The notes below the pieces were generated by a model. It ran no database searches and was not told where the DNA came from. It worked only from the letters and a program-made list of their open reading frames with translations. From Dickeya solani IPO 2222 (GTDB lineage: Bacteria; Pseudomonadota; Gammaproteobacteria; Enterobacterales; Enterobacteriaceae), in the NCBI RefSeq assembly GCF_001644705.1, contig NZ_CP015137.1, forward strand, positions 1,230,001-1,262,000: a stretch of 32,000 nucleotides of DNA, given 5' to 3'. The number at the start of each line of letters is the position of its first letter. Position 1 is the stretch's first letter. Shown here piece by piece: positions 1 to 23,968 of the stretch. A program made the translations under genes and the position numbers.

Positions 1-968
1 AACTGCAACGCCGTCAGGATCATCAGCACCAGCCCCATCAGCACCGACGCCGCCGACGCCAGCCCGTACTGCGACGCGTTGGACGAAAACGCGGTCTGAT
101 AGATGTACTGCACAATAAAGTTGTTGGCGGTGCCCGGTCCGCCACCGTTGGTCAGCACCCAGGCTTCGTCGAAAATCTGCACGCTGTTGATGGTCAGCAG
201 GATCACCACCACCAGAATGTTGGGCGCCAGCAACGGCAACGTCAGGCGATAGAAACCGCGCCAGCGCGAGGTGCCGTCCACCGCCGCCGCTTCGTAGATA
301 TCACGCGGGATCGCCTGCAACCCGGCCAGCAGAATCAGGGTATAAAAACCGACGTGAAACCACACCGACACGAACACCACCCAGAAGCGCGCCAGCGACG
401 GCTCCAGCAAAAACGTGACAGGCTGGCCACCCAGCGACGATAGCATCAGATTCAGCAGCCCGTTGCGGTTAAGGAACCACTGCCACACCAACCCGACCAC
501 CACCGGCGACAGCAGCACCGGGTAGAAAAAGATGGCGCGGAAGAAACCGCGGGCGATGATCTTGCGGTTGAGGATCAGCGCGGTGACCAGCGCCACGCCG
601 AGCGTGCACGTCACGTTAAAAAAAGTGAACGAGACGGTGTTGTAGACGCCGGTCCAGAACAGGTCCTGCTCGCAGGTGGCGGGCACCGTGTACTGCTCGC
701 AACTCAGCAGGGTAGTGAAGTTCTGCAACCCGACGTATGGCCGGTCCCACAGCAGGATGTTGGTGCCGCCGGTGAAGGCGTAGCACACCGCCAGCAGGAT
801 CGGAATAAACACGAACACGGCGAACAGCAGCATGTTCGGCGCGATGAAAAACCACGGCATCACCCGGCGGCCGCCGAATTTTTGCAGCAGATTGACCGAT
901 TTTTCCACCGGCGTCACCAGCGTATCCACCAGCGACGCGCCGGGCTGAATCAACGATTTTCGATTCAT
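1..968 (-). CDS. Carbohydrate ABC transporter permease, MalF/UgpA type (N-terminal part; gene runs off the left edge)
   Basis: Absent from the ORF track because it is open at the window edge. My reverse-strand translation from ATG 968-966 gives MNRKSLIQPGASLVDTLVTPVEKSVNLLQKFGGRRVMPWFFIAPNMLLFAVFVFIPILLAV... It is hydrophobic throughout and has the EAA-loop signature of binding-protein-dependent permeases (DIYEAAAVDGTSRWRGFYRLTLPLLAP). It lies on the same strand directly downstream of the ATPase gene. Confidence 0.85.
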   Translation of the reverse strand, partial: MNRKSLIQPGASLVDTLVTPVEKSVNLLQKFGGRRVMPWFFIAPNMLLFAVFVFIPILLAVCYAFTGGTNILLWDRPYVGLQNFTTLLSCEQYTVPATCEQDLFWTGVYNTVSFTFFNVTCTLGVALVTALILNRKIIARGFFRAIFFYPVLLSPVVVGLVWQWFLNRNGLLNLMLSSLGGQPVTFLLEPSLARFWVVFVSVWFHVGFYTLILLAGLQAIPRDIYEAAAVDGTSRWRGFYRLTLPLLAPNILVVVILLTINSVQIFDEAWVLTNGGGPGTANNFIVQYIYQTAFSSNASQYGLASAASVLMGLVLMILTALQ

Positions 969-1049
969 GTTCGTCTCCTGATCATGTTCGTCTCCTGATC
1001 ATGTTCGTCTCCTGATCATGGTTGTCTCCTGATCATGTTCATCTCCCGC
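966..1049 (-). repeat. 17-bp tandem repeat (about 4 full copies plus a degenerate copy), each unit carrying a Shine-Dalgarno sequence and an ATG
   Basis: The plus strand reads catgttcgtctcctgat x3 (966-1016), then catggttgtctcctgat, then catgttcatctcccgc. On the coding (minus) strand the unit is ATGATCAGGAGACGAAC. It fills the whole ATPase-permease intergenic gap. Confidence 0.95.
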
Positions 1050-1051
1050 AA

Positions 1052-2152
1052 TCAGGCTTTCTGTTCCGCCAGACGCGGCAGCGCCTGACCGCTGTCGGCA
1101 TCAAACAGGTGGCAATAGTCTTGCGGGAAGCGGACAAACACCAGCTCGCCGGTGCGGAATTCGTGGTGTCCCGGCAGGTGCACGATCAGCTCGTCGTCGA
1201 TGCCGGCGCAGCGTCCATAGATAAAGGTTTCGTGCCCCATCATTTCGCAGCGGTCGATGCACAGCGACACGCCGTCGTCATGCTCGCTCACCAGTTGACA
1301 GTGCGAGGGACGAATGCCCAGTTCCACCGTTTTCCCCTCTTCGCCGCGAAACGGCAGCCGCAACAGGTTGCCGGATGGGCAGCGGACGTCCACCCCGTCA
1401 TCCGACGCGCTGCTGATGGTGGCGGGGAACATATTCATACGCGGCGAACCGATAAAACCGGCCACAAACTTGTTTTTCGGCCGGTTGAACAGCTCCAGCG
1501 GCGTGCCCACCTGTTCGATGCGTCCGCCGTTGAGCACCACGATGCGCTGGGCCATGGTCATCGCCTCCACCTGATCGTGGGTGACGTAAATCATGGTGGT
1601 GCGCAGCTTCTGGTGCAGCCGGGTCAGCTCGCCGCGGGTCTGTACCCGCAGCTTGGCGTCAAGGTTGGACAGCGGCTCGTCAAACAGGAACAGGTCCGGG
1701 TCGCGCACGATGGCGCGGCCGATGGCGACGCGCTGCTGTTGCCCGCCGGACAGCGCCCGCGGCTTGCGTTCCAGATACGGTTCCAGCCCCAGCATGCGCG
1801 CGGCGTCCCCGATGCGCCGTTCAATTTCGTCTTTGGGGAAATGCAGGTTTTCCAGCCCGAACGCCAGATTCTTGCGCACCGACAGGTGCGGATAGAGCGC
1901 GTAGGACTGGAACACCATGGCGATTTTGCGCTCCGCCGGGCCAAGATCGTTGACCTTGCGATCGCCGATCCACAGCTCTCCGTCGGTGATCGGCTCCAGA
2001 CCGGCGATCATCCGCAACAGCGTGGATTTACCGCAGCCGGACGGCCCGACGAACACCATGAACTCCCCGTCGCGGATGATCAGATCCACGCCTTTGATAA
2101 TCTGTATCGACCCATAGCTTTTATGGACGTTTTTCAGTTCCAGACTCGCCAT
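1052..2152 (-). CDS. Sugar ABC transporter ATP-binding protein (MalK/UgpC/MsiK family)
   Basis: Walker [10 protein letters not shown], signature [14 protein letters not shown] and Walker B LFLFDEP are present, with a C-terminal MalK-type regulatory domain. The track ORF starts at GTG 2155. ATG 2152 has GAGGA 7 nt upstream and is the more likely start ([14 protein letters not shown]...). Confidence 0.9.
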
Positions 2153-2167
2153 CACCGTTTCCTCAAC

Positions 2168-2204
2168 CTGTTTCTGTTTTCAAACCCGTTTCTGTTTTTC
2201 AAAC
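2168..2204. repeat. Tandem duplication (18 + 19 bp) at the hydrolase-ATPase junction
   Basis: ctgtttctgttttcaaac (2168-2185) is followed directly by ccgtttctgtttttcaaac (2186-2204). The second copy contains the stop codon (2199-2201) of the upstream hydrolase gene. Confidence 0.85.
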
Positions 2205-3311
2205 AGAATGCCGCTGCGCCAGCAGCATCAGCATGACCAGCGCCTGCCCGTACGGCACGGCGACATTGGGGATATCGTGATAAAACTGCAGGTCGTGGCC
2301 CATCGCGGTGCCGTCCGACACCCCTTGTACCACGCCCTGTTCATCAATCTGCGCCATCACCGCCGCCAGCCCTTTATCCAGCGCCGCCTGCGGGAAATCC
2401 GCCAGCATGCCGAGCTGACGGGCGGTGAGAATGCCGGCGATGAAACCGGCGCTGGCGGAGGTTTCCAGCGGCGAATCTGGGTCGTTGAGCAGGGTGTGCC
2501 ACAGCCCGGAATCATGCTGACAAGCCGCCAGCGTGCGAGTCTGCTGGGCGAGGATCGCCTCCAGCGTGCGGCGCACCGGCGCCGAGAGCGGTGAGTCCGT
2601 CAGATAGCAGATTTCCGGCAGCACCAGCGTCACCCAGGCGTTGCCGCGCCCCCAGAACGCCCCGGCGTAATGGTGGCGACCCAGGAACGTCCAGCCGTGA
2701 TACCACAGCCCGCTGGCGGCGTCCGCCAGATAGCGGGCGTGGGTCAGCAACTGGTATTCCGCTTCCTCCAGCAGTTCCCGACGTTTGAGCACCCCGGCGC
2801 TGACCACCAGAAACAGCCCGGCCATAAATAGCGTGTCGTCCCACAGTTGCCCGGTGTTGGGACGCTCCTTGACCGTGTGCTGGAAGCCGCCGTCTTCGGT
2901 TTTCGGCAGCGAATGCAGTAGCCAGTCCGCCCACTCTTCCACCGCCGCCAGCCAGTGCGGACGGGGGTTATCGCGGCACAGCAGCGCCAGCACCAGCATC
3001 GGCGCGGTAGAGTTGATTTGCCGCGGCGGCAGCCCGGCCTGCAATTTTTGCTCGTACCACTGTTCCAGCGCCGCCAGCATGGCGTGGTCCTGCCGCTGCC
3101 GCGCCAGTTTCCAGAAGCCGTACAGGCCGACGCCCACTTCCCAGTCCCACTCTTCGAACTGGATGGTCAGTGCCTCGCCGGCCGGCGCACCGTCGTTCAT
3201 GTCGGTCACGCTGTTGATAGCTTTCAGGCGGCAAAACGCCAGCGCCACCTTGTCCAGCAGCGCATCAATCTGCCGGGTGCCGGAGAGTCCGTTGATGGAT
3301 TGTGTTGTCAT
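2199..3311 (-). CDS. Unsaturated glycuronyl / rhamnogalacturonyl hydrolase family protein (PF07470-type, GH105/GH88)
   Basis: 370 aa with no signal peptide. The composition suggests an (alpha/alpha)6-type fold, and the motif LWDDTLFMAGLF resembles the catalytic-Asp motif of YteR/YesR-type GH105 enzymes. Other family-like stretches are GRGNAWV and YGQAL. The start ATG is 1 nt after the stop of the upstream 826-aa gene, and GAGGAGGA lies in that gene's 3' end. Confidence 0.75.
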   Translation of the reverse strand: MTTQSINGLSGTRQIDALLDKVALAFCRLKAINSVTDMNDGAPAGEALTIQFEEWDWEVGVGLYGFWKLARQRQDHAMLAALEQWYEQKLQAGLPPRQINSTAPMLVLALLCRDNPRPHWLAAVEEWADWLLHSLPKTEDGGFQHTVKERPNTGQLWDDTLFMAGLFLVVSAGVLKRRELLEEAEYQLLTHARYLADAASGLWYHGWTFLGRHHYAGAFWGRGNAWVTLVLPEICYLTDSPLSAPVRRTLEAILAQQTRTLAACQHDSGLWHTLLNDPDSPLETSASAGFIAGILTARQLGMLADFPQAALDKGLAAVMAQIDEQGVVQGVSDGTAMGHDLQFYHDIPNVAVPYGQALVMLMLLAQRHSV

Positions 3312-3312
3312 G

Positions 3313-5793
3313 TTACCGATCCTCCTCGGTACGCTCAGGTATCACCGATACCGTGTCGGGAAATGCGAAGGGGTGATGATTGACGGCGAAACCGCTCGCC
3401 GGATGCCAGTCCATCAGGCCGTAGTCCGGGTCGTCGAACTGCGCCGCGCCGTCATCCGACCGCTGCGCCTGACGGTGGCGGAAGCGTTCGATAAACGCCG
3501 GGAAATCCGCCGCGCCCTGCCCGCTGTCCACCGCGATATACCAGACGTTATGCTCGCCGAAGGCGCGCAATTCGCTGTCCGGCTGCCCGCCGTCCGGGGT
3601 GTGGGTTTGCAGCCCGGCCGGGTTGTGCAACGCGGCATAGCCGTTGCCGCCGCGCACGAAACACCAGTGCGTCTCCACCACCACCTCGTCCAGCGCGGTA
3701 CGCGGCAGGTAAAGGTGGGTCCAGCGACGCAGGTCGTGCTGCAAATCGAAAATCATCCAGGCGCGGTTGCGATGCTGCATCACGTGCGGCAGGCGGCCGT
3801 TGCCGGCCCAGTAGGACGGGCGGTGCACGCCGTCCGGGCGATCTTCGCCGGGATGGTTGACCCACAGCCGGGCGGCGTAGTGGCGGCCGAGGCGGATATC
3901 CAGCACATGCTGCTGGTGTCCCGGCTGGCCGGGGTGGTGATCGAACACCGAGGAAAACGCCACGTCCGGCTGTTTCCAGGCGATGACGCGGGCGCTACGG
4001 TTCAGCCCCTGTACCCAGCGCGCCTGCGCCCCTTGCGGTGACTGCCAGTGGGCGATGGCGTACGTCTCTTCAGGCGGCTGGTACTGGCTCAGGCACAGCA
4101 ACGGCAGCGCCGCACAGTGCGGGATCAGCCAGCCCTCGCCCCAAATCAGCGCGCACAGGCCGGACAGTTCGGTCAGCATGCCGGAGCGCAGTTCCTTGTC
4201 GTAAGCGCGCCCCATGGTGCCAACCGCCACACCGTTCTGGTGCACCCAGGCGGTCATTAGCAGAATACGGTCGATAACCGTGCGGGCGCGTTCGCGCAGG
4301 CTTTCATCACTAGCCAGCTCGGCCAGCGCCACCAGCCCGATCAGATCGATGGGGTAATAGGCGGCGGAGTTCCACTCCACCAGCCCGTGTTCCAGAATGG
4401 CGTCGAACCAGCGCTCCAGCCGCTGGCGGGCGATAGCCTGCTGCTCGCGGCCCTGACGACCGCTGCACACGAAGACCGAATCGGGAAAGTTTTGCCCGGC
4501 CAGATACTGCGCCACATGGAAACAGAGGCAGTGGTTCTCGCTCCAGAACCACATGGTGTCGTTGCCCGGCTCATCGATCCAGTAACGAAAACCGAGGATC
4601 ACGCTGCGAACGCGCCGCCAGTCATGGGCCGTCAGCCGCTGGCCCTGATAGCGCTGCCACAGCCAGATCAGCGGCACCAGTTGAAAGTCGGCGCAGTCTT
4701 CCCGACGGCTGATCTTGTGCAGCGCCTGATTGAGGCTCGGCATGATGTTCGCCGTCCCTTCGCCGGTGGCGAAGATAGCCAGCACCCGGCCGATGCGCTC
4801 GAAACCGTGCAACGCGGTGTGGCGCAGCAGGTAGTCGCGCCGGGCGGCCAGCGTCGACAGCGACGGCATGGCTTGTGTGGACATAGTTTGCGCAGGCAGG
4901 CGGCCGAAACTGATGCTGCGCGTCAGGGTGATGCCGTCGCACACCGCGCGGCAGACCAGATCGTAATACCCCACCAACCCCGCCGGCAGCGCCACCGGCC
5001 AGCCGGTATTGCCCGCCGCCAGCGGCGATTGTTGCCGCCAGGACGGCGCCGATTCGTTAACGTTGCACACCAGATGGTGATGGATATCGACCGCTTCCGG
5101 CAACGGCGTGGCGGCGCGCAGGGTCAGGGTATCGTGGTCAATCAGGTTGTCGGCCAGCGACAGGCTGTTGATCCAGCCGTCCAGCGCCTGGATGCGTTCG
5201 CTGCAGGCGGCGTCCGGCGCGGCCTGCCAGCGCAGCGGCGTCTCACCAAGGTAACGCAGGCTGAACAGGTAGTCGGTATCGCGTTCACACAATTCCTCGG
5301 CATGCACCACCAGCGTGTTTAACCCCAGTTGCAGCGGCAGCGTCAGTTCGCACTGCTGTTCGGTGTTACGGCTAAACGGGGTGAAACGGCAGATCTGACG
5401 ACCATTAAGCCAAACGGTTACGCCGCCGCAGGTAGACAGCAGGAAACGCGCCGGTTGCAGGCTATCGCTGTGCAGATAGCAGCGGGCGAAGCGTTGCACA
5501 TGGGTGGGGCAAGGCCAGAAATCGCTGAAATTGACCGACTGGCTGTCATCGCCGCCGCTCCACAGGGTGTGAAAACGGCGATGCTCCGGCAGGCTGACGG
5601 CGCGCAGCGCGGTTTCTTGCAAGAACCGCACCCGACAAGGCAAGACGCCGACATCCACAAAGCCATTAATAAAGCGGTAATTAACATTATCCGGCAAGGT
5701 ATCCGCTTCTGCAGGATAATATTTTTCCTCCAGATCGCTAATCATAAACCGGTTAATCACGCTATTTTTCTTTAACACCCAACCGATATTCAT
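3313..5793 (-). CDS. Large cytoplasmic heparinase II/III-like (polysaccharide/oligosaccharide lyase-fold) protein, function unknown
   Basis: 826 aa, with AAGGA 6 nt before ATG 5793 and no signal peptide. The central region (WFWSENHCLCFHVAQYL..., WNSAAYYPIDL) looks like an alpha/alpha toroid. The C-terminal region contains GHQQHVLDIRLG, which resembles the GHxHxD motif of the heparinase II/III C-terminal beta-sandwich domain. There is an extra N-terminal domain of about 200 aa. The assignment rests on by-eye motifs only. Confidence 0.55.
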   Translation of the reverse strand: MNIGWVLKKNSVINRFMISDLEEKYYPAEADTLPDNVNYRFINGFVDVGVLPCRVRFLQETALRAVSLPEHRRFHTLWSGGDDSQSVNFSDFWPCPTHVQRFARCYLHSDSLQPARFLLSTCGGVTVWLNGRQICRFTPFSRNTEQQCELTLPLQLGLNTLVVHAEELCERDTDYLFSLRYLGETPLRWQAAPDAACSERIQALDGWINSLSLADNLIDHDTLTLRAATPLPEAVDIHHHLVCNVNESAPSWRQQSPLAAGNTGWPVALPAGLVGYYDLVCRAVCDGITLTRSISFGRLPAQTMSTQAMPSLSTLAARRDYLLRHTALHGFERIGRVLAIFATGEGTANIMPSLNQALHKISRREDCADFQLVPLIWLWQRYQGQRLTAHDWRRVRSVILGFRYWIDEPGNDTMWFWSENHCLCFHVAQYLAGQNFPDSVFVCSGRQGREQQAIARQRLERWFDAILEHGLVEWNSAAYYPIDLIGLVALAELASDESLRERARTVIDRILLMTAWVHQNGVAVGTMGRAYDKELRSGMLTELSGLCALIWGEGWLIPHCAALPLLCLSQYQPPEETYAIAHWQSPQGAQARWVQGLNRSARVIAWKQPDVAFSSVFDHHPGQPGHQQHVLDIRLGRHYAARLWVNHPGEDRPDGVHRPSYWAGNGRLPHVMQHRNRAWMIFDLQHDLRRWTHLYLPRTALDEVVVETHWCFVRGGNGYAALHNPAGLQTHTPDGGQPDSELRAFGEHNVWYIAVDSGQGAADFPAFIERFRHRQAQRSDDGAAQFDDPDYGLMDWHPASGFAVNHHPFAFPDTVSVIPERTEEDR

Positions 5794-5974
5794 GACGAAT
5801 CCTTGTTACCGCGCGAGTGAATAAATGAAATATCGAGAATGCATTGCCAAATAAAAATACTAATGAATAAAAAAATACCTGACGGCATTTATTTGCACCG
5901 TTATTGTGCGCGTGCTGCCTTTATTTAGCGCAATGCAGTTTTTCAGTGCCAGCCTCAAAAATCGGCGGCGATAA

Positions 5975-5989
5975 ATGCAAAATTTGCAT
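5975..5989. promoter_or_regulatory. Palindromic candidate operator ATGCAAA-A-TTTGCAT in the divergent promoter region
   Basis: Perfect 15-bp palindrome in the AT-rich 5794-6283 intergenic region. Related half-sites TTTGCA(C/T) occur at 6000-6006 and 6020-6026. Confidence 0.5.
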
Positions 5990-6168
5990 AATCTGGCAAT
6001 TTGCACTTAACATCGTATTTTTGCATTATAGAGTAAATTATCGCGTGAACAATATGCGATTCTTATCACAAAAAGACGTTGACTCAGCCATGAGTCGAAA
6101 TATATTTAATATGCCTCACAAAAAAGAACGCGATTTTTGTTCATGATTAGTCGCCGAATAGGCTATTC

Positions 6169-6182
6169 ATGCAAATTTGCAT
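6169..6182. promoter_or_regulatory. Second palindromic candidate operator ATGCAAATTTGCAT
   Basis: Perfect 14-bp palindrome with the same half-sites as 5975-5989. It lies about 100 bp upstream of the binding-protein gene start. Confidence 0.5.
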
Positions 6183-6283
6183 CATGCATCAGGAGCCGTC
6201 GAATATACCCGGAGTAATAAAGCCAACGCGCCTGAAACTTGAAGTATGACGGGTATATATATACATATGGGTGGGAGAGTAGA

Positions 6284-7594
6284 ATGAATCGCTATCAGCA
6301 CGCGCTGTTATTTTCCTTTATGACGCTGGGCGCTTTCGCCAGCAGCAATGCCATTGCCGCCAAAACGCAAATCACCTTTTTATACAGCGACGACGACCCG
6401 GAACTGGTCCATTTCATGGAACAGAAGGTGAAGACGTTTTCACAAAACAACGATCACATCGACGTGAATTTCGTCAGCACCGGCTACAACGCACTGCAAA
6501 CCCAGTTGCCGATGCAATTGGCCGCCGGTCTGGGGCCGGATATCGCCAAAACCACCCAGATGGGCCTGCTCTCCTACACGCTCGACCTGCGCCCTTATCT
6601 GGCCGATCCGGCCGGTTTCGAAAAACGCTACGGTGCCAGTATTGAAAAAATCATGCGCATCAACGGGGTACACAAGGATAACGCCCTGCCGGGCTTCGTC
6701 GCCTCCTGGACCGCCGACCTGCCGTTCGTCAACGTAACCCTGTTCCAGCAGGCCGGCGTGCCGCTGCCGCAACCGGGTTACACTCTGGAACAGCTGATGC
6801 AGGCGTCGAAACAGGTGGCGGCAAAAACCGGCGTTGCCATTCCCTTCACCATCGACCGCAGCGGTTTTCGCTTCTCCGGCCCGGCCTACTCCTACGGCAC
6901 CCGCTACGACAAAGACGGTCTGATCAACTTCCCGGACGCCGCCGCGCAGGCGTGGATCAAAGACCTGAAACGCTGGTCGGACGATGGCATCTTCCCGCGT
7001 GAAATGTGGGGTGCCGCCGGCGGCGGTCAGTACAAGAGCATGGCCGACGACTTTGTGAACGGCAACATCGTCACCTACTTCTCCGGCAACTGGCAGTTGA
7101 ACCAGTTCAGCAAGCAGATCGGCAACGGTTTCGACTGGAAAATGCTGCCCGCGCCCTGCAAGGAAAAATGCATCTCGATGGGCGGCGCCACCTTTATCAT
7201 GCCGTTCAAGACCAGCAAGCATCCGAAAGAAGTGGCGGAATTCATGGAATGGCTGGGCAGCGACGCCATCCAGCGTGAGATCGCCGAACACTTCAATATC
7301 ATCGTCGGTGCCGATATTCCGGATCTGCATTACCAGACCAAGGATCAGCACGTGATCGACGGGTTGAACACCGCCCGCGCCGAGATCGCTAAAATTCCAG
7401 CCTACGTGTTCGACTGGGAAAAAATGGAAAGTCTGGGCGGCAGCGAGCTGTATCCGATCATCCTGACCCGCTTTACCCAGTACCTGAACAATCAGGTGTC
7501 GTATGACGAGTATCTGCGCCTGACGGAAAACGACGTGAAACGGCTTAACCAGATCATCGCCGCCAACCGGCAGCAACAGCAGAAAGCCCAGTAA
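6284..7594 (+). CDS. Carbohydrate ABC transporter periplasmic solute-binding protein (family 1)
   Basis: The track ORF begins at TTG 6239. ATG 6284 is preceded by GGGAGAG and gives a clear signal peptide, MNRYQHALLFSFMTLGAFASSNAIA-AK. The length and composition are typical of a family 1 solute-binding protein. Confidence 0.85.
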   Translation: MNRYQHALLFSFMTLGAFASSNAIAAKTQITFLYSDDDPELVHFMEQKVKTFSQNNDHIDVNFVSTGYNALQTQLPMQLAAGLGPDIAKTTQMGLLSYTLDLRPYLADPAGFEKRYGASIEKIMRINGVHKDNALPGFVASWTADLPFVNVTLFQQAGVPLPQPGYTLEQLMQASKQVAAKTGVAIPFTIDRSGFRFSGPAYSYGTRYDKDGLINFPDAAAQAWIKDLKRWSDDGIFPREMWGAAGGGQYKSMADDFVNGNIVTYFSGNWQLNQFSKQIGNGFDWKMLPAPCKEKCISMGGATFIMPFKTSKHPKEVAEFMEWLGSDAIQREIAEHFNIIVGADIPDLHYQTKDQHVIDGLNTARAEIAKIPAYVFDWEKMESLGGSELYPIILTRFTQYLNNQVSYDEYLRLTENDVKRLNQIIAANRQQQQKAQ

Positions 7595-7618
7595 CGAAGG
7601 AGTCAGTAACGGAGGAGT
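7591..7618 (+). repeat. Two-copy tandem duplication of a stop/SD segment (GTAACGAAGGAGT / GTAACGGAGGAGT, 15-bp period)
   Basis: The sequence is gtaacgaaggagtca gtaacggaggagtat followed by ATG 7619. The first copy contains the binding-protein stop codon TAA (7592-7594), and both copies carry GGAG. Confidence 0.8.
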
Positions 7619-8167
7619 ATGAAACGCCAGCTGATTCACCAGCCTATCGACGGCGACGCGCCGTTTGACTGGCAGACGGAAAACGACCTCTGCCAGCAAC
7701 GGTGGCCGGATGAAGACCGGTGTTTGGTGGTGACCGGCACCTTCACCCGGCTGCTGTGCTGGCAGCAGGGTCGGCTGCAACGCCACGGCGGCAGCCTGTT
7801 TCCGGTGGGCGATCCGGCCAGTCAGGCGCGGCTCGGGCTGTGGGCCGTGCAGGCGATGCTGCAGGCGGTGGAAGGCATGACGCCACTCACACCGCTGGCC
7901 AGCACACTGTTTGCCCGTTTCGACAACCACATCGAACAGGTGGTGGACTGGTCGAAACAGGCGCAGGCCGGCGATTACGCCGCGCTGGCGGCCGATATTC
8001 TCGCGCAGCCGGACGACCCGCTGGCGGTGCCGCTGCTGAAACGCGCCGCCCGTGAGCTGGCTACGTTGCTGCGCCTGTCTGACGCACGCCAGCCGGAACA
8101 GGTCTGCTTTAGCGGCGCGCTGGCGGCGGCCTGTCTCCCTTATCTCGCTCAGGAGGCGCGCTCATGA
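7619..8167 (+). CDS. Truncated, degenerate paralog of the downstream BadF/GlcNAc-kinase-family kinase (possible pseudokinase or gene remnant)
   Basis: 182 aa with a strong GGAGGAG RBS. It aligns by eye to residues of about 120-270 of the next protein. Compare VVTGTFTRLL..GGSLFPVGDPASQARLGLWAVQ...FDN...GDYA...ARE with VIAGTGSCGL..GGHEFPISDQGSGARLGLAALQ...FDN...GDYA...ARE. It lacks the N-terminal DGGGT phosphate-binding motif and the C-terminal tail. Its stop overlaps the next start (ATGA, 8164-8167). Confidence 0.6.
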   Translation: MKRQLIHQPIDGDAPFDWQTENDLCQQRWPDEDRCLVVTGTFTRLLCWQQGRLQRHGGSLFPVGDPASQARLGLWAVQAMLQAVEGMTPLTPLASTLFARFDNHIEQVVDWSKQAQAGDYAALAADILAQPDDPLAVPLLKRAARELATLLRLSDARQPEQVCFSGALAAACLPYLAQEARS

Positions 8168-9063
8168 CCACGACCGCCACACCTTATGCCGGCGAAACGC
8201 TTTATGCCGGCGTTGACGGCGGCGGCACCGGCTGCCGGGCGCGAATTTACCGGGCCGACGGTACGCCGCTCGGTCAGGGCAGCGGCGGTCGCGCCAATCT
8301 ACTGCTGGGCGTGGAAACGGTGCGTCAGGCGGTGGACGACGCGCTGATGCAGGCGCTGAAACACAGTGGACTGAGCGAGCAGGATCGCCCGCGTCTGTAC
8401 GTCGGGCTGGCGCTGGCCGGCGCAGAACACCGCAGCGCCTATCAGGCGTTTCTGACTTTGCCGCATTCCTACGCCGCGCAGGTGTTGAATACCGATGCGC
8501 TGGGCGCCTGTCTGGCGGTCAATCAGGGGGACGACGCCGGGGTGGTGATCGCCGGCACCGGCTCCTGCGGGCTGGCGTGGCATCAACGCGTCATCACCGC
8601 TTACGGCGGCCACGAGTTTCCGATATCCGATCAGGGCAGCGGCGCGCGTCTCGGGCTGGCGGCCCTGCAATACCTCTGGGGCGTCAAACAGGGCTGGGCG
8701 CCGCCGTCGGCATTAAGCCAGCAGCAGACGCTGCCGTTTGACAACGAAGCGGAAGCGGCGGCCTGGTTGCATCAGGCCAGGCCGGGCGACTACGCCCATT
8801 TCGCCCGACCGGTGTTTGATTGCGCCCGTCAGGGCGATGCGCTGGCGACCGGCCTGCTGCAACAGACCGCCCGCGAAATTGAAGGGTTACTGGCGGCGGT
8901 AGCGACACACCCACTGCCCCGCCTGTCGCTAATGGGTAGCATCGGTCTGCATATCCGGCCCTGGCTGGACGAAGCATGGCAACAACGGCTGTCGCCGCCC
9001 GCCGGCGATGCGTTGGACGGCGCGCGACTGATCGCCGTCAACCGCTACGCGCTCTACGTCTGA
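8164..9063 (+). CDS. BadF/BadG/BcrA/BcrD-type ATPase, N-acetylglucosamine/glucosamine kinase family sugar kinase
   Basis: 299 aa with the N-terminal motif AGVDGGGTGCRARI, the central motif IAGTGSCG and the motif DQGSGARLG, which are typical of the ASKHA-fold GlcNAc-kinase family. Confidence 0.8.
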   Translation: MTTTATPYAGETLYAGVDGGGTGCRARIYRADGTPLGQGSGGRANLLLGVETVRQAVDDALMQALKHSGLSEQDRPRLYVGLALAGAEHRSAYQAFLTLPHSYAAQVLNTDALGACLAVNQGDDAGVVIAGTGSCGLAWHQRVITAYGGHEFPISDQGSGARLGLAALQYLWGVKQGWAPPSALSQQQTLPFDNEAEAAAWLHQARPGDYAHFARPVFDCARQGDALATGLLQQTAREIEGLLAAVATHPLPRLSLMGSIGLHIRPWLDEAWQQRLSPPAGDALDGARLIAVNRYALYV

Positions 9064-9082: not shown

Positions 9083-9835
9083 TTATGCACACGCCTGCCG
9101 GCGCGTTGCCCAACGCAGGCAGAGCAACGGCAGCGGCAAGGTCATCATCAGCAGCAGCCACACCAACGCGTATACCGCGTCCACGCCGTCGTTTTGCAGG
9201 TTGATGTACAGCTTGACCGGGATACCTTGCGGAAAATAGGCGAAAATCATCACGATGCCGAACTCGCCCATCGCCCGCACCCAGGCGATGGCGACTGCCG
9301 CCGCCAGCCCGGAGGCCGCCTGCGGCAAAGTCAGGTAAATCAGGCGTTGCCAGGCGCTCGCCCCCAGAATACGCCCGGCTTCGTCCACCGAGGCGGGAAT
9401 GCCGGCGAAAGCGGAACGCGCCGCGGTGATGAAATAAGGCAACGCGCCATAGACCTGCGCCACCACGAACGCCGCCGGATTGTTCACCAGCGCCAGCCCG
9501 GCGCGAGATAACAGACTGCCGATCGGGCTGTACGGCCCGTAGACCGACACCAGCAGGATCCCCATCGCCAGCGGCGGCGTCAACAGCGGGATCATCACCA
9601 GCAGTTCCACCAGCCAGCGGCGGCGCGAATTGTTCGCACGCGCCAGCCAGAGCGCCACCGGCAGCCCCAGCAGTATCACCAGCGCTATCGCCAGCAGGCC
9701 GAGGCCGACGGAAACGGCGATAGCGTCGCCGTCGCCCCACGCCAGTTGGAAATGATGCCACGGCGTAATCCCGAGCAGGGTGACAAACGGCACCGCCAGC
9801 AGCAGCAATGCCGGTATCGCCAGCCAGAACGCCAT
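9083..9835 (-). CDS. ABC transporter permease, ModB/CysT-like (oxyanion type)
   Basis: The track ORF extends to 9958 and overlaps the upstream gene. ATG 9835 lies 7 nt after the binding-protein stop and gives MAFWLAIPALLLLAVPFVTLL... The protein has multiple transmembrane segments and an EAA-type loop, SVDEAGRILGASAWQRLIYLTLPQAASGL. Confidence 0.8.
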   Translation of the reverse strand: MAFWLAIPALLLLAVPFVTLLGITPWHHFQLAWGDGDAIAVSVGLGLLAIALVILLGLPVALWLARANNSRRRWLVELLVMIPLLTPPLAMGILLVSVYGPYSPIGSLLSRAGLALVNNPAAFVVAQVYGALPYFITAARSAFAGIPASVDEAGRILGASAWQRLIYLTLPQAASGLAAAVAIAWVRAMGEFGIVMIFAYFPQGIPVKLYINLQNDGVDAVYALVWLLLMMTLPLPLLCLRWATRRQACA

Positions 9836-9842
9836 ACTCCGG

Positions 9843-10790
9843 TTACTTCGCGGCGTAGAGCGCCGCGCCTTTCGGTACGTCGTAACCGTTCTGGCGGAAC
9901 AGCGCCTGCCCTTCCGGGCTGAGCATAAAGTTGACGAATTTGCGGGCCTGCGCCGCATCGGGCGCGTTTTTCAGCACCGCGGCGTAGAACACCAGCGGCT
10001 GGGTGTGCAACACCTGATCCTTGCCGGCGCTGTCTTTGATGGTGAAGCTGACGGTGTCGTACCACTGTTTCGACATCGCCGGGTTGCTGAGGTTGATTTC
10101 ATCCGGCAGCGACACATACGGCAGTGTGGTGGAGCGCACCGCGCTCTCGTAACCGGAGGTGGCGTCGATCTGCCCGGACTCCAGCCGGGTCAGCAGCCCG
10201 CCTTCCATGAACACCTGCGCCGGGTTCTGCACCTCGCCCAGCGCCTTTTTGGCCGCATCCGGCTGATGGTAGTACTTCTCGGCCAGCAACATGGTGAAGA
10301 CGATATTCTGGCCCTGCGGGTCGTTATACGGGTCGGTGCGGCCGAATTTCAGCGATTTGTCCTGTAACACGTTCAGCCAGTCGCTATTCTTCGCCTTATC
10401 GGAGGCCGCCAGCCTGGCGGCAAACGGACTTTTGGGATTGTAGGCGATGACCATACGGGTACTGGCAACCGGAATGGCGTCGTCGATCAGTCCGGCGTCT
10501 TTCAAAATCTGCATCGGTCCCGGCGTGATGGACACGAACACGTCCGCCACCACTTTTTTGCTGGCCAGCAGGCGCGCCATGCCGTACGCCCCTTGTCCCT
10601 GCCCCTGATAAGCCAGGTTCTCTTTTTTGGCGAACGTCGGCCCCAACGCCTTGTCCATCACCACACCCATCGACCCGGCGTAGGTTAACTGAATTTTATC
10701 CTGCGCCTGTGCCGCGCTGCCTGCGAATAACGCGGCCGCCAATACGACTGCCAGCGGATATTTACCCCGAATGTTCACTCTCGACTCCAT
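9843..10790 (-). CDS. Periplasmic solute-binding protein, ModA/WtpA-like (molybdate/tungstate/sulfate-type fold), ligand unknown
   Basis: 315 aa with a signal peptide (..KYPLAVVLAAALFAGSAAQA-QD). It has type-2 periplasmic-binding-protein character and is co-transcribed with the ModB-like permease. GTG 10778 with GGAG upstream is an alternative start. Confidence 0.65.
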   Translation of the reverse strand: MESRVNIRGKYPLAVVLAAALFAGSAAQAQDKIQLTYAGSMGVVMDKALGPTFAKKENLAYQGQGQGAYGMARLLASKKVVADVFVSITPGPMQILKDAGLIDDAIPVASTRMVIAYNPKSPFAARLAASDKAKNSDWLNVLQDKSLKFGRTDPYNDPQGQNIVFTMLLAEKYYHQPDAAKKALGEVQNPAQVFMEGGLLTRLESGQIDATSGYESAVRSTTLPYVSLPDEINLSNPAMSKQWYDTVSFTIKDSAGKDQVLHTQPLVFYAAVLKNAPDAAQARKFVNFMLSPEGQALFRQNGYDVPKGAALYAAK

Positions 10791-15278: not shown

Positions 15279-15289
15279 ATCAGCGGCCT
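15270..15289 (-). terminator. Hairpin overlapping the DeoR stop codon, followed on the minus strand by a T/C-rich tract
   Basis: aggccgc-cgatca-gcggcct forms a 7-bp stem with the stop codon TGA (15282-15280) in the loop. Downstream on the minus strand is TTCCCTTCACGCGCTTTTCCCTTCGCTTTCTTTTCCC. Confidence 0.45.
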
Positions 15290-16050
15290 GCACTCACCAG
15301 TTGCAGATTGAACGGCTGCGCCCGAAGCTGACGCTCCACCTCCGGCGGCAAACTGCTGTCGGTGATGATATCGGTCAGTTCAGACAACGGCGAGACGCAA
15401 AACAGCGAGTAAGCACCGTATTTGCTGCTGTCGGCCAGCAACACCCGGCGGCTGGCGTTAACGCCTAAATCCTGCTTGATACCCGACTTTTCTTCAGTGG
15501 GGGTGGTGATACCCTTCTCCAGGCTCCAGGAGTTACAACTGATAAAGGCGATGTCCGGGTAGACGCTGCGCAGCAAACGACGACCGTGTTCGCCGATGCA
15601 GGACTGGCTGCTGTCGTCGATACGACCGCCGATGATCGTCACTTCGATCTGCTTGAACTCGGAGAGAAACAGCGCGATCTGCAAGTCGGCGGTGATCACC
15701 CGCAGCGGCAGATGAGTCAGGTTGCGCGCCAGCTCCATCATGGTGGTACCGGCGTCCAGCACCACCGCGTTGCCGGGCTGCACCAGCGACGCCGCATACC
15801 GCGCAATAGCCTGTTTTTCCGACAGATTGCGCTGCAACTTTTCATTGGTGGTCGGCTGGGAAGGGATAAAGCGGTTGAGCGTCACCCCGCCGTGGCTACG
15901 GCTGATGACGCCCTGCTCGTCCAGCTTGATCAAATCGCGGCGAATCGTCGCCGGGGACGCATCAATGACTGTCACTAGTTCATCCACCGTCACCAGATTA
16001 TGGCTTTTCAGATAATCCAGAATCTGATCGAGACGGCTTTGTCCTTTCAC
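15280..16050 (-). CDS. DeoR-family transcriptional regulator
   Basis: N-terminal winged HTH ([50 protein letters not shown]) and a C-terminal DeoR sugar-phosphate sensor domain. I prefer GTG 16050 (GGAGAA 4 nt upstream). The longest ORF starts at TTG 16083. Confidence 0.85.
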
Positions 16051-16131
16051 TCGTTCTCCATTTACACGCAACGTATCAGTCAATGTGTGTGCCCCACGAC
16101 GTATTCAACGGTTCCATACTCTGCGATTCTA

Positions 16132-17112
16132 TCAGGCCAGTTGCATCGCTAATTTGATAGAGATCGCCATGCTCTCAGACTTCGCTTTACCTGTCCAGGC
16201 GATATCAAACGCGGTGCCGTGGTCCGCGGAGGTGCGGATAAACGGCAGTCCGGCGGTGATATTCACGCCATCATAAAAGCCCAGCAGCTTGAGCGGAATG
16301 TGCCCTTGATCGTGGTACATCGCCACCACCATGTCGTATTGCCCCTCGTACGCCTGCAGATAGACGGTATCCGGCGGGCACGGGCCGTAGGCGTCGATGC
16401 CTTTGGCTTTCATCGCCTCGATGGACGGGCCGACGATGGTGATCTCTTCGTCGCCGAACAGGCCGTTCTCGCCCGCGTGCGGGTTCACCCCAGCCACGGC
16501 GATGCGCGGCGACTGATAACCAACGCGTTTCAGGAAGGTGTCCGCCATCGCAATCACGGTTTCCACCCGCTCACGGTTAAGCGTATCCAGGAATTTGCGC
16601 AGCGCAATGTGGGTGGTGACGTGGATCACCTTCAGTTTGTCGGTATACAGCACCATCGCGTAGTCGCGGCTGTTGGTCAGTTTCGCCAGCAGCTCGGTGT
16701 GCCCCGGATAAAGATGTCCGGCGGAGTGCAACGCTTCCTTATTGAGCGGCGCGGTGGCAATCGCTTGCACCTCGCCCGCCATCGCCAGTTCGGTAGCGCG
16801 CTTCACGCAGCGATACGCCAGATCACCGGCCTGCGCCTGCACCACCCCTTTTTTCAGACCCTGCGGATCGGCCAGCGGTTCGTCGATCACGTTGATAACG
16901 CCGGGAGCGAAACGCGCGTCGGCGGGACGCTCAATCTCATTGAGTTCCACCTGCGGCACAACGCCTAACGCCAGAATGCGGCGCAGCGTCTGCACGCAGC
17001 CCACCACCACCGCCGGCGCGCCGGACAGTTCACCTTCGGCCAACGATTTGATGATGATTTCCGGGCCGATACCCGCCGGGTCGCCCATGGTTACCGCAAT
17101 AATTTTACTCAC
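16132..17112 (-). CDS. pdxA2: PdxA-family NAD-dependent oxidative decarboxylase, PdxA2-type (4-phospho-D-threonate / 4-phospho-D-erythronate dehydrogenase)
   Basis: PdxA family motifs are present: [42 protein letters not shown] and [17 protein letters not shown] 17112 with GAGGAGA upstream overlaps the kinase 3' end by 8 nt. The PdxA2 subtype is inferred from pairing with a DUF1537 kinase. Confidence 0.8.
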
Positions 17113-18391
17113 ACACGCTCTCCTCAATAAAACGCAATACATTCAGCAGGGTAGCTTCATCGCCAAACCCGCCCGCTTTCGTCATCACGGGAATATCGCC
17201 CACCAGACTGTCCAGTAGACGCCCCCAGGGTACGCAGGAAGCAATCTGTCCATTGATGCGGAATCCGCTGGCCTCCAGTGCGGTTGCCGCGGCAATGGCG
17301 ATATCTCCGCCGGATAAATAGAGCCCGCCCGGCCGCTGACGCTGCACAATGTGCCGCGTTAGCTCGCCCAGCCGGCGACTGATCGTCTCTCCCAGTTGCT
17401 GACGGCTCATGCCGTAGCGCTGGCACAGACGGTCCACCTCAAATCGCTGGTTATCATCGTGGCAGGTACGAATCACGCAGTGACGGCCTGCCGCCAGCGT
17501 CGACGCCGCCTGCCGGCACGTTTGCGCCAGCGTATCGTCGCCAGTCGCCAGCAACCCGGCGATATCCAGGTCAATCAGCGTGACGTCCGGCCGCTGGCTG
17601 ACCGCCTTGATCTGCAATTGAGCGATTTCACTCATCGAACCAATCACCGCCAGCAACGCGCGGCAGGGCGCCGGAAACGCCAGATGCTGCGCCAGCGCCT
17701 CGCTCAGCCCGGCAGAGCCGACCAGCAGCGGTTTTTCCGCCAGTTGAGCCGCCGCCGCAATAATACGGTCGAGATCCTGCTGACATTCGGCGTCCAGCAC
17801 CACCAGCCGTATCCCGCTGTGTTGCAACTGTTGCAGCCGCGCCGCCAGATCGCCGTAGCGAACCTCGTTCAGGGACAGCGCTGCCTGCGCCAGGCCGGTC
17901 TGTTCCGCCAGCCGCTCACCGATTGACGCCGAACACACCGGCGTTTTCGGGTCGCTGGCGAACTCGGTATCGGTCAGCAATTTACCGTGCACCCATACCT
18001 GCCCGTCGCGGGTGATGCGACCCAGCGCCGGCGCCGCAGGCGCTATCAGTGCCAGCGACAGATCGGCGGCGTTCAGCGCGGCTTCAATTTCCGCGCCTGG
18101 ATTGCCGCGCAGCGTGGAGTCCACCTTTTTGACAATCCAGCCGTGCGCGCCGCTCTTGCGCCACATTTCTACCGCCTGTGCGGTACGTTCCGCCGCCAGC
18201 GAGGCCGCGACCGCGCGGCTGTCGGTGTTGACCACCAGCGCGTCGTCCGGCTGCCCGGCACGGATCGCCGCGGCGTCAAACATCACATTCACCCGTGCGC
18301 CCTGCAGCGCCAGTCCGACGCCTGCATCATTGGCGCCGGTGAAGTCATCCGCCACTACCAATATCCGAGTGAGTTCACGCCTGTCCGGCAT
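17105..18391 (-). CDS. DUF1537-family four-carbon acid-sugar kinase (DtnK/DenK/OtnK family)
   Basis: 428 aa. The N-terminus [15 protein letters not shown] is the conserved DDxTGxxD motif of DUF1537 kinases. The two-domain length and the adjacency to a PdxA-family gene fit the family. Confidence 0.8.
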
Positions 18392-18405
18392 AGCCGCTCT
18401 CCGTC

Positions 18406-18478
18406 AGTTCGATGTTAGTTCGATTACCTGAAATTGATTATATTGAATCACGTTTGATTATATGTGAGCAACATCAAA
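18406..18478. promoter_or_regulatory. Cluster of direct repeats and a CRP-like site in the divergent control region
   Basis: AGTTCGAT occurs twice (18406-18413 and 18417-18424). TTGATTATAT occurs twice exactly 20 bp apart (18434-18443 and 18454-18463). TGTGAgcaacaTCAAA (18463-18478) matches the CRP consensus TGTGA-N6-TCACA at 9 of 10 positions. An inverted repeat TCACAT-N7-ATGTGA lies at 18542-18560. Confidence 0.4.
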
Positions 18479-18616
18479 TTATTCGAAACCAATTTAACCT
18501 ATAAATTATCCACACAATGCGAGCAAAACGATTTTTTTCTGTCACATAAAAGAAATGTGATTGAAAAAAATCAGACTTATCCCGCTGAAGTCACAGCGAA
18601 AAGACAAGGTAACAGT

Positions 18617-19753
18617 ATGAATATCAACAGCACCCTCATCAGCGGTTATCAGGCACTTCAGGATTTGGGCTACCTCCTGCGCGGCAGGCAGCACGTGCTG
18701 CTGGTGACGGACAAAAATATCGTGGGGCTGGCCGGGGTACAGGCCCTGATCGCGCAACTGAAAGCGGGCGTGCCGCAACTGTCCCTGATAGATAATGTGC
18801 CGGCCGAACCCAGCCAGCATGATGTGGCTGCTGTGCTGCAACAGTTGCCGGCCACGCAGCCGGACCTGGTGGTCGGCGTGGGCGGCGGCAGCGTGCTGGA
18901 CGTGGCGAAACTGCTGTCGCTGCTGTGCGCCGGTGAAGAGGGCATCACGCTCGACAGCCTGCTGGAAGGCCGCAAGCCGACACGCCGCACTACCTCTCTG
19001 TTGATCCCAACCACCGCCGGCACCGGCTCTGAAGCCACGCCGAACGCTATTCTGGCGATCCCGGAGAAAGAAACCAAAGTCGGCATCATCACCCCGGTCA
19101 TGCTGCCGGATTACGTGGCGCTGGTGCCGGAGCTGACCACCAGCATGCCGGCGCATATCGCCGCGTCGACCGGCATTGATGCACTGTGCCACCTGATCGA
19201 ATGTTTCACCGCCACCATCGCCAACCCGGTAGCGGACAACTACGCGCTGATCGGCATGAAGAAGCTGTTCGCCAACATCGAAACCGCGGTGAACGAGCCG
19301 GACAACCTGGAAGCCCGCCTGAATATGCTGTGGGCCTCCTACTATGGCGGCGCGTCCATCGCGCATTCCGGCACCCATCTGGTGCACGCCATGTCTTACC
19401 CGCTGGGCGGCAAGTACCACATCCCGCACGGGGTGGCGAACGCCATTCTGCTGGCGCCCTGCATGCGCTTTGTTCAGCACGCGGCGGCGGAAAAATTCGC
19501 ACAGGCCTACGACCTGCTGCCGGATGCCGACCTGTCGCTGAACACCGAACAAAAAGCCCAGGCGCTGGTGGATTACTTCACTGCGCTGGTGAAACGGCTG
19601 AATTTGCCGTCTTCGCTGCAACAACTGGGGATCAGCCCGGACCACCTGCCGTATCTGGTGGAATCCGCACTGCAAGTGCAGCGGCTGATGAAAAATGTCC
19701 CGACCGCCGTTACGGCGGAAGACGTTCACGCCATTTATTCAACGTTGTTTTAA
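18617..19753 (+). CDS. Iron-containing (group III) alcohol dehydrogenase family oxidoreductase
   Basis: ATG 18617 gives MNINSTLISGYQALQDLG... Family motifs are GVGGGSVLDVAK, TTAGTGSE and the metal-binding His cluster (CHLIE..., HSGTHLVHAMSYPLGGKYHIPHG). The track start at 18464 lies in the AT-rich promoter region. Confidence 0.85.
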   Translation: MNINSTLISGYQALQDLGYLLRGRQHVLLVTDKNIVGLAGVQALIAQLKAGVPQLSLIDNVPAEPSQHDVAAVLQQLPATQPDLVVGVGGGSVLDVAKLLSLLCAGEEGITLDSLLEGRKPTRRTTSLLIPTTAGTGSEATPNAILAIPEKETKVGIITPVMLPDYVALVPELTTSMPAHIAASTGIDALCHLIECFTATIANPVADNYALIGMKKLFANIETAVNEPDNLEARLNMLWASYYGGASIAHSGTHLVHAMSYPLGGKYHIPHGVANAILLAPCMRFVQHAAAEKFAQAYDLLPDADLSLNTEQKAQALVDYFTALVKRLNLPSSLQQLGISPDHLPYLVESALQVQRLMKNVPTAVTAEDVHAIYSTLF

Positions 19754-19821
19754 GCGCGCGTTTTAGTCGCGCATTTTACCAACGTCGCTCTGGATGATGA
19801 AAATACCGAGGAACAATAACG

Positions 19822-20706: not shown

Positions 20707-20743
20707 ATGAGAACTTACCCTTACTCCTACAGGATCGAAAACC

Positions 20744-22165: not shown

Positions 22166-22171
22166 ATAGTC

Positions 22172-23347: not shown

Positions 23348-23358
23348 TACCTCGCTCG

Positions 23359-23381
23359 CCCTCCCCCGCTCAGGGGGAGGG
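23359..23381 (+). other. Intercistronic GC hairpin (9-bp stem)
   Basis: ccctccccc-gctca-gggggaggg lies 12 nt after the BNR-gene stop. No U-tract follows. Confidence 0.5.
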
Positions 23382-23450
23382 ACAACACAAGTTCCCCCAC
23401 TTGCCGACGCACGGCGCCGCCCGGTGGGTTGCCACATCCATTGCCTTCAG

Positions 23451-23482: not shown

Positions 23483-23488
23483 TCATCC

Positions 23489-23962: not shown

Positions 23963-23968
23963 CGCCGA

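Follow-up and report, generated by a model that had tools for sequence, protein, structure and literature searches.

What compound does Dickeya solani IPO 2222 take up and degrade with the genes found at positions 1 to 9063 of the DNA stretch analysed here? The stretch, referred to below as the window, is 32,000 nucleotides (nt) in length (contig NZ_CP015137.1, positions 1,230,001 to 1,262,000). Exact protein matches likewise place it in D. solani. The locus is divergent. Its minus-strand arm encodes a protein of 826 amino acids (aa), a hydrolase of Pfam family PF07470, and the ATPase and one permease of an ATP-binding cassette (ABC) importer. Its plus-strand arm encodes a solute-binding protein, a 182-aa kinase-like protein, and a sugar kinase. 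This gene set and order, with the divergent arm, had been described in an earlier sequence-only reading of the same DNA, and all of the genes are present as such in the open reading frame (ORF) map. Strong family matches were found for every gene of the locus except that of the 826-aa protein. The locus is read here, with moderate confidence, as a LacI-controlled catabolic locus for an acidic oligosaccharide. The core of this substrate is probably a hexose or hexosamine joined (1->4) to a uronic acid that is joined in turn (1->x) to an aglycone. It would be broken down by beta-elimination, trimming by an enzyme of glycoside hydrolase (GH) family 105, and phosphorylation of the hexose.

Predicted fold and conserved residues of the 826-aa protein

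The 826-aa protein (3313..5793, minus strand) is a candidate lyase. It has no Pfam or NCBIfam match. Searches of the Protein Data Bank (PDB) with phmmer and with profiles of 34 and 61 sequences match nothing in its catalytic part. The Pfam models Hepar_II_III, Hepar_II_III_N, Alginate_lyase, and Lyase_8 do not match any of 34 homologues even at E <= 5. Only close family members are among the 150 proteins listed by a large profile search, which provides no bridge to a known lyase family. The only signals from these searches are weak PA14/CBM-like ones (CBM, carbohydrate-binding module) in the N-terminal region, where 13 of the 34 homologues have weak PA14 matches. Some orthologues carry the automatic UniRef name “Heparin-sulfate lyase N-terminal domain-containing protein”, and the orthologue of Dickeya dadantii 3937 (Dda3937_03081) is annotated “hypothetical protein”.

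A full-length model was built with AlphaFold2 from the alignment of 34 sequences. It has a predicted local distance difference test score (pLDDT) of 87.3 and a predicted template modelling score (pTM) of 0.89. Three parts can be distinguished in the model. Residues 1-300 form two beta domains, one PA14/CBM-like and one immunoglobulin (Ig)-like; residues 315-581 form an alpha/alpha toroid; and residues 589-822 form a beta-sandwich. The extra N-terminal region, which had been taken for a single domain of about 200 aa, is accordingly about 300 aa and two domains in the model. A Foldseek search with the full-length model is dominated by GH2-like N-terminal beta domains (sugar-binding and Ig-like) with a TM-score of about 0.12. 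Because the search was swamped by these domains, residues 305-826 were modelled separately for Foldseek against the PDB (pLDDT 88.3; pTM 0.89-0.91 over both models).

The top 13 PDB matches to residues 305-826 are 12 polysaccharide lyase (PL) chains, from families PL8, PL12, PL15, PL17, and PL39, and human dermatan-sulfate (DS) epimerase 1. The lyases matched are Atu3025 of PL15 (3a0o); chondroitin AC, hyaluronate, and chondroitin ABC lyases of PL8 (2wda, 2x03, 2brv, 1hn0, and 7eip); Alg17c and a Zobellia enzyme of PL17 (4ojz, 7bjt, and 7bm6); heparinase III of PL12 (4mmi); and Dp0100 of PL39 (6jpn). E values of the 13 range from 4e-7 to 3e-3, and the probability is 1.00 for the first ten. Atu3025 is the best match, DS-epimerase (6hzn) is second, and Alg17c is sixth. 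The highest query-normalised TM-score, 0.50, belongs to DS-epimerase. Glycoside hydrolases of the toroid type (GH63, GH94, GH92, GH52, GH95, and GH9) enter only at rank 18, from E = 0.014 upward. The predicted fold supports a place for the 826-aa protein in the alpha-toroid plus beta-sandwich lyase superfamily by fold and not by sequence family, and the lyase fold suggested by the sequence-only reading is upheld to that extent. No match to a characterised non-lyase family was found in Pfam, NCBIfam, or the PDB.

Seven residues (N420, H421, Y479, R529, Y531, H693, and E741) are conserved in at least 90% of 61 relatives with identities down to 20%. An acidic and aromatic block, D366-F370 and R403-M414, is conserved to the same level in these relatives. 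In the model, N420 and H421 occupy the N-terminus of helix 419-435, and Y479 that of helix 480-493. The spacing from N-H to Y is 58 residues, which resembles the His/Asn to Tyr spacings of 54-56 in PL12, PL15, PL17, PL21, and DS-epimerase. Asn420/His421 and Tyr479 are candidates for the catalytic His, Tyr, and Asn expected of a lyase.

The GH105-type hydrolase and its companions

The PF07470 hydrolase (2199..3311, minus strand) is 370 aa in length and matches the family at E = 8e-82. Its ORF is separated from that of the 826-aa protein by a single base (3312). Both proteins appear to be cytoplasmic; in agreement with the sequence-only reading, no N-terminal hydrophobic signal sequence is present in either when the sequences are read directly. 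The closest solved structures are 3pmm, labelled “putative cytoplasmic protein” and the nearest of all, and 3qwt and 4xuv, labelled GH105 (E = 1e-82 to 1e-66). The match to YteR has an E value of 5e-11, and the match to the GH88 entry 5noa only 1e-6. D143 of YteR, its catalytic residue, aligns with D159 of the hydrolase. All 72 relatives collected from related loci share H145, D158, D159, H205, W207, R222, and W226 with it. By these comparisons, the hydrolase is of GH105 type and keeps the predicted catalytic Asp. An unsaturated uronide is more likely its substrate than a beta-galactoside, because the GH105 catalytic set is conserved and the lyase-fold partner is obligatory.

The 826-aa family has 383 relatives in contigs sampled at one genome per species, and 2469 clusters at 50% identity (E <= 0.001). 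Loci were fetched from Pectobacteriaceae, Rhizobiaceae, Vibrionaceae, Alteromonadales, Enterobacteriaceae, and Aeromonas, 89 in total. A GH88/105 gene lies directly downstream of the 826-aa gene, on the same strand, in 87 of the 89; Palleronia and Devosia are the exceptions. The two proteins also occur as single polypeptides of about 1190-1200 aa (P0065, P0066, and P0107), and one relative (P0214) is fused to a ROK sugar kinase.

The transport and kinase genes differ by lineage. Pectobacteriaceae have a binding protein and ABC importer, a truncated kinase and a BadF kinase, and a LacI gene. Rhizobiaceae have an ABC importer and a GH28 gene (“PglB”), with no kinase. Photobacterium, Catenovulum, and Psychromonas have a GPH symporter with either a Mak-like ROK kinase or a mannose-isomerase-like AGE protein. 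Buttiauxella, Yokenella, Klebsiella sp., and Aeromonas have an alpha-glucoside-specific phosphotransferase system (PTS) IIBC protein (TIGR02005, 652 bits; cut-off 607), no kinase, and sometimes a KdgM porin; in Buttiauxella, the KdgM-family porin gene is upstream of the locus. A predicted hexose-phosphorylating step is therefore a recurrent companion of the enzyme pair. The alpha-glucoside PTS variant would imply a terminal alpha-hexosyl residue with a free O6. A lyase fold, a GH105-type enzyme, and hexose phosphorylation together fit a hexose(amine)-(1->4)-uronate-(1->x)-aglycone. The pathway logic of the sequence-only reading, in which a uronate-containing oligosaccharide is cleaved, trimmed, and phosphorylated, is supported by the adjacency in 87 of 89 loci, by the fusions to GH88 and ROK kinase, and by the replacement of the kinase by an alpha-glucoside PTS.

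Two further observations were made on the family and its loci. A cytoplasmic protein of 555 aa with no Pfam or NCBIfam match is encoded directly upstream of the 826-aa homologue in Klebsiella sp. BIGb0407 (L086, 7061-8728) and in loci L031 and L063; this protein of Enterobacteriaceae loci may be a further enzyme of the pathway. Two relatives, P0123 (1551 aa) and P0128 (1515 aa), have roughly double the usual length, and the family profile matches two stretches in each. P0123 has no Pfam domain. Tandem duplication or fusion to an unknown domain may account for both.

The importer of D. solani is encoded in both arms. The ATPase (1052..2155, minus strand; likely true start at ATG 2152) is of the MalK/UgpC type, with PF00005, OB_MalK, and TOBE_2 matches and an NCBIfam UgpC subfamily score of 487 bits (cut-off 432). 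Permease 1 (1..968, minus strand) is partial. Its translation (MNRKSLIQPG...) begins at the ATG at 968-966, and the gene exits the window at its start. The orthologous permease of Dickeya undicola (L003, 14755-15756) matches PF00528, and in sister loci a second permease follows. The periplasmic binding protein (6284..7594, plus strand) matches SBP_bac_8 (E = 5e-21) and SBP_bac_1 (E = 4e-16). Its ORF opens at 6239, and the ATG at 6284 is the likely true start, which yields the Sec-type signal peptide MNRYQHALLFSFMTLGAFASSNAIA. The parts expected of a CUT1-type carbohydrate ABC importer are thus present by family match: a binding protein, a BPD_transp_1 permease, and a MalK-type ATPase with OB/TOBE domains, with the second permease predicted from sister loci.

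Two repeats lie in the spacers of these genes. A 17-bp tandem repeat of 4.8 copies (965..1046, minus strand; Tandem Repeats Finder score 143, 92% matches) fills the spacer between ATPase and permease. Each copy contains AGGAGA and ATG on the coding strand, and the chained six-codon mini-ORFs (MIRRRT*) overlap by ATGA and run into the permease start. The array is absent from D. undicola L003, where the spacer of 15 nt (ATPase ORF end at 14739, permease start at 14755) has no room for it. Permease translation may be tuned by the array. The second repeat, at 7589-7626, lies between the stop of the binding-protein gene and the start of the 182-aa ORF. It consists of 2.0-2.3 copies of a 15-bp unit that includes AAGGAG and is in effect a doubled ribosome-binding site.

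The kinase (8164..9063, plus strand) is 299 aa in length and matches PF01869 (E = 1e-26). Its PDB matches are 1zc6 (probable N-acetylglucosamine (GlcNAc) kinase), 2e2n (Sulfolobus hexokinase), and human NAGK. It had been called a GlcNAc-kinase-family kinase. Membership of the BadF/NagK-like family (BadF/COG2971) stands on these matches, but the protein is not scored as a NagK equivalog, and its predicted substrate is a hexose or hexosamine. The kinase ORF overlaps the preceding 182-aa ORF (7619..8167, plus strand) by ATGA. The 182-aa protein is BadF/NagK-like and truncated to the C-terminal subdomain; it aligns only to positions 119-270 of the 295-position NagK model. A decaying pseudogene was considered for this ORF and rejected: the gene is intact and does not vary in length across 15 Pectobacteriaceae loci, and its dN/dS is 0.13-0.34, as against 0.12-0.17 for the full kinase. 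The “kinase-like fragment” of the sequence-only reading is therefore truncated as described but is no mere fragment. By its conservation it is a gene kept without the N-terminal ATP-binding subdomain, and its product may be a non-catalytic partner of the kinase.

No regulator gene for the locus is present within the window, as had been noted. A LacI gene does adjoin the locus in sister loci, directly after the second permease (D. undicola L003, 16822-17880; Pectobacterium L005), and a LacI orthologue is found in 70 related loci. From this position, the D. solani LacI gene should lie just past the left edge of the window, before position 1. In Palleronia (L087) and Devosia (L040), a Glucosamine_iso (NagB-like) gene follows the LacI gene. 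The palindrome ATGCAAA(N0-1)TTTGCAT has two perfect matches in the window, against 0.00 expected, and both are in the divergent intergenic region: predicted operator 1, ATGCAAAATTTGCAT, at 5975..5989, and predicted operator 2, ATGCAAATTTGCAT, at 6169..6182. Operator 2 is downstream of a sigma-70-like site at 6079-6106 (TTGACT/TATATT, 10 of 12 matches). The core TGCAAA(N0-1)TTTGCA is present in all 16 Pectobacteriaceae loci in the same relative place, as a pair of sites some 195 bp apart. It is also present upstream of the 826-aa gene in eight marine gammaproteobacterial locus records, with one site each, so that the predicted operator is conserved in 24 related locus records overall. The palindrome is likely a LacI-family operator.

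Proposed pathway and competing explanations

The proposed pathway has five steps. The secreted binding protein and the ABC importer, with its two permeases and MalK-like ATPase, would bring an intact, saturated oligosaccharide into the cytoplasm. By beta-elimination, probably through Asn420/His421 and Tyr479, the 826-aa protein would break the bond at C4 of the uronate, freeing the hexose and leaving a 4,5-unsaturated uronate on the aglycone. The GH105-type hydrolase would hydrate the vinyl ether through Asp159 and release the unsaturated uronate and the aglycone. The BadF-type kinase, possibly with its truncated paralogue, would phosphorylate the freed hexose or hexosamine. A LacI-family repressor would bind the two conserved palindromes in the divergent promoter region.

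Several observations weigh against this pathway. No lyase family or solved structure is linked to the 826-aa protein at the sequence level by the Pfam and PDB searches. The query-normalised TM-scores of the Foldseek matches are only 0.30-0.50, and the candidate catalytic residues are assigned by conservation and spacing. The hydrolase scores 457.7 bits with the NCBIfam model NF051900, “beta-galactosidase BglB” (Agrobacterium), above the curated cut-off of 420, and the NCBI annotation pipeline PGAP already applies the BglB name to Dickeya orthologues. The kinase scores 219.8 bits with NagK_SO3507, below the equivalog cut-off of 370. In Palleronia L087 and Devosia L040, the 826-aa gene is without an adjacent GH88/105 gene. 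Downstream uronate genes of the kduI/kduD type are absent from the window.

A more specific substrate can be named tentatively, although it is rather doubtful. This is the head group of plant (and algal) glycosylinositol phosphorylceramide (GIPC) sphingolipids, Man/GlcN/GlcNAc-alpha1,4-GlcA-alpha1,2-inositol(-phosphate), in which Man is mannose, GlcN glucosamine, and GlcA glucuronic acid. The 826-aa protein would then be the first member of a new lyase family acting on the hexose-alpha1,4-GlcA bond, the linkage type cut by heparinase III. The GH105-type enzyme would free inositol, and the kinase or PTS would capture the hexose or hexosamine. A secreted metallophosphoesterase of about 630 aa would remove or expose the phosphate in Pectobacterium, Brenneria, Klebsiella sp., and Catenovulum. 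The gene for this protein adjoins the locus in these four, which represent three lineages, and the proteins are orthologous (34% identity over the full length). A Ca-dependent phosphatidylinositol phospholipase C is encoded beside the locus in Catenovulum. In Palleronia, bona fide iolG and iolC/J genes and an iolD-like gene come after the locus, with nagA- and nagB-like genes nearby. In Agrobacterium, an IolG-like gene (521 bits; cut-off 540) stands between two xylose-isomerase-like TIM-barrel genes after the locus. Helper enzymes of mannose, glucosamine, and glucose type occur across the versions of the locus. Once a fungal 630-aa GIPC-phospholipase C has acted, soluble Man-GlcA-inositol(-phosphate) and its GlcN(Ac) forms build up in tissue infected by a necrotroph (PMC11496612).

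Four points argue against a GIPC head group. Dickeya lacks the metallophosphoesterase, the metallophosphoesterase family also occurs away from the enzyme pair (Microvirga, Phyllobacterium, and Rhizobium contexts), the GH28 gene of Rhizobiaceae is left unexplained, and the hints in its favour are all contextual. A link of the metallophosphoesterase to acid sphingomyelinase was considered and is not shown; the sole PDB match is Lmo2642 (E = 3e-8). Pectic (rhamnogalacturonan-type) fragments or fragments of microbial exopolysaccharide are also possible substrates.

An unlikely alternative is that the substrate has already been made unsaturated outside the cell by secreted pectate or rhamnogalacturonan lyases. 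The GH105-type enzyme would then act first, and the 826-aa protein would be a hydrolase or a binding or accessory protein for what is left of the oligosaccharide, for example rhamnogalacturonan-I fragments. Dickeya secretes many pectic lyases, which would suit such a route. Some sources name the hydrolase “unsaturated rhamnogalacturonyl hydrolase YesR”. The best PDB match of the binding protein, although weak (E = 6e-8), is YesO of the Bacillus subtilis rhamnogalacturonan system, and the Rhizobiaceae locus contains a GH28 gene. Against this stands the order of the fold matches, in which lyases and DS-epimerase come first and glycoside hydrolases only from E >= 0.014. The pair is also kept in marine Photobacterium, Catenovulum, and Psychromonas and in Palleronia, and no other lyase was seen in the inspected loci. 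Finally, the ROK kinase fusion and the alpha-glucoside PTS point to a hexose product and not to rhamnose.

Still less probable is a different reaction at the lyase-type active site of the 826-aa protein, one in which no leaving sugar is released. The protein would act either as a uronate C5-epimerase like DS-epimerase or as a 4,5-dehydratase on a terminal uronate that makes the substrate of the GH105-type enzyme, with the hexose as aglycone. The position of DS-epimerase as second-best Foldseek match with the top TM-score favours this reaction, and an entry named “beta-D-glucuronate dehydratase” (9o4u) is among the toroid matches, weakly (E = 0.11). The strict pairing with GH105 would also be accounted for by a dehydratase but not by an epimerase. 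The alpha-glucoside PTS is easier to reconcile with a non-reducing-end hexose than with a hexose aglycone.

That the PF07470 protein is a true beta-galactosidase BglB, used on a neutral galactoside with an unrelated role for the 826-aa protein, is very improbable despite its NF051900 score, the PGAP name, and the gene that NCBIfam calls PglB beside its Agrobacterium orthologue, given the invariant vinyl-ether hydration residues (D159, H145, H205, R222, and W226), the GH105 type of all close solved relatives, and the predicted lyase fold of the partner; no GH88 or GH105 enzyme is known to cleave saturated galactosides.

The beta-elimination pathway is preferred on this evidence. The 826-aa family is large, is labelled “hypothetical” in RefSeq, and has no solved relative, yet its tie to GH105 holds across soft-rot pathogens, rhizobia, agrobacteria, and marine bacteria. 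If the protein is shown to be a lyase, it would define a new polysaccharide lyase family and correct a “beta-galactosidase BglB” annotation that is spreading. If the GIPC head group is its substrate, the locus would be the first bacterial route that consumes the main sphingolipid glycan of the plant plasma membrane.

Neighbouring genes and comparison with known systems

The kinase gene is directly followed by genes for a permease (BPD_transp_1) and an SBP_bac_11 binding protein (9083-10790), with no adjoining ATPase gene. In Pectobacterium and Brenneria, the secreted metallophosphoesterase gene takes the place of these genes. A second, unrelated sugar-acid cluster is present at 15280-24652. 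It encodes a DeoR regulator, a PdxA-like dehydrogenase, a four-carbon acid sugar kinase (SBD_N/NBD_C), an iron-containing alcohol dehydrogenase, a DHDPS/NanA-like aldolase, an SSF symporter, a BNR_2 sialidase-like protein, a YhcH/YjgK protein, and a short-chain dehydrogenase/reductase. The cluster resembles a threonate/erythronate-type module combined with a sialic-acid-like one.

The orthologous pglB-bglB locus of Agrobacterium tumefaciens, in the region of Atu4560, has the same binding protein, followed by the divergent 826-aa homologue, GH88/105, ATPase, and two permeases. It differs in an extra GH28 gene (“PglB”) and in lacking a BadF kinase, and it is followed by an IolG-like dehydrogenase gene, two xylose-isomerase-like TIM-barrel genes, and a LacI gene. 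The GH28 gene scores 724 bits with the PglB model (cut-off 600) and 112 bits with the PglA model. Identity with the plant-inducible picA/pglA (Atu3129) locus was considered and rejected, as the GH28 gene scores as PglB and not as PglA. Both names, BglB and PglB, reportedly originate in a study of mutants, and the less virulent mutants of Agrobacterium tumefaciens are said to include pglB and bglB. No name for the Agrobacterium 826-aa homologue was found in the literature, and searches on the Atu and Dda3937 locus tags and on BglB gave nothing useful. Atu4560 is PglB in A. tumefaciens (PMC6683767), and reviews describe glycoside hydrolase mutants of A. tumefaciens as less virulent (PMC10530663; PMC6683767). 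Because the Agrobacterium orthologous locus holds genes of the families that NCBIfam names PglB and BglB and glycoside hydrolase mutants are described as less virulent, the substrate may matter in plant infection.

The exo-oligoalginate lyases Atu3025 (PL15, 3a0o) and Alg17c (PL17, 4ojz) share the toroid plus beta-sandwich architecture with the predicted fold of the 826-aa protein. They are likewise cytoplasmic and act on imported oligosaccharides, and their His/Asn...Tyr arrangement has plausible counterparts in N420, H421, and Y479. Unlike them, the 826-aa protein has 300 extra N-terminal residues, and there is no detectable sequence similarity. Its partners are a GH105-type hydrolase and a hexose kinase instead of alginate genes, which suggests a product that stays glycosidically bound and needs a hydrolase.

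The heparinase II/III lyases (PL21 and PL12; 4mmi) and the chondroitin and hyaluronate lyases of PL8 act with the unsaturated glucuronyl hydrolase of GH88. They share the fold class and the proposed chemistry, beta-elimination at hexosamine-(1->4)-uronate followed by hydration. Pfam Hepar_II_III or Lyase_8 recognises these lyases, which are secreted or periplasmic, whereas the 826-aa protein is cytoplasmic, matches neither model, and is paired with GH105 instead of GH88.

The rhamnogalacturonan-I system of B. subtilis (YesW/YesX of PL11, YesOPQ, and YteR/YesR) also combines GH105 with a CUT1 ABC importer. It differs in its extracellular beta-propeller lyases, the lack of a hexose kinase, and the release of rhamnose. 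Within Dickeya, the TogMNAB-Ogl and RhiT-RhiN systems likewise import acidic plant oligosaccharides for a cytoplasmic lyase (Ogl) or GH105 enzyme (RhiN). They differ from the locus in their transporter genes, in the PL22 membership of Ogl, and in having no hexose kinase.

By analogy, then, the locus would work like the routes of lyase and unsaturated uronyl hydrolase known for glycosaminoglycans, rhamnogalacturonan-I, and oligoalginate. It is set apart from them by a cytoplasmic lyase-fold enzyme that belongs to no Pfam or NCBIfam sequence family, carries 300 extra N-terminal residues, and is coupled to GH105 and to hexose phosphorylation.

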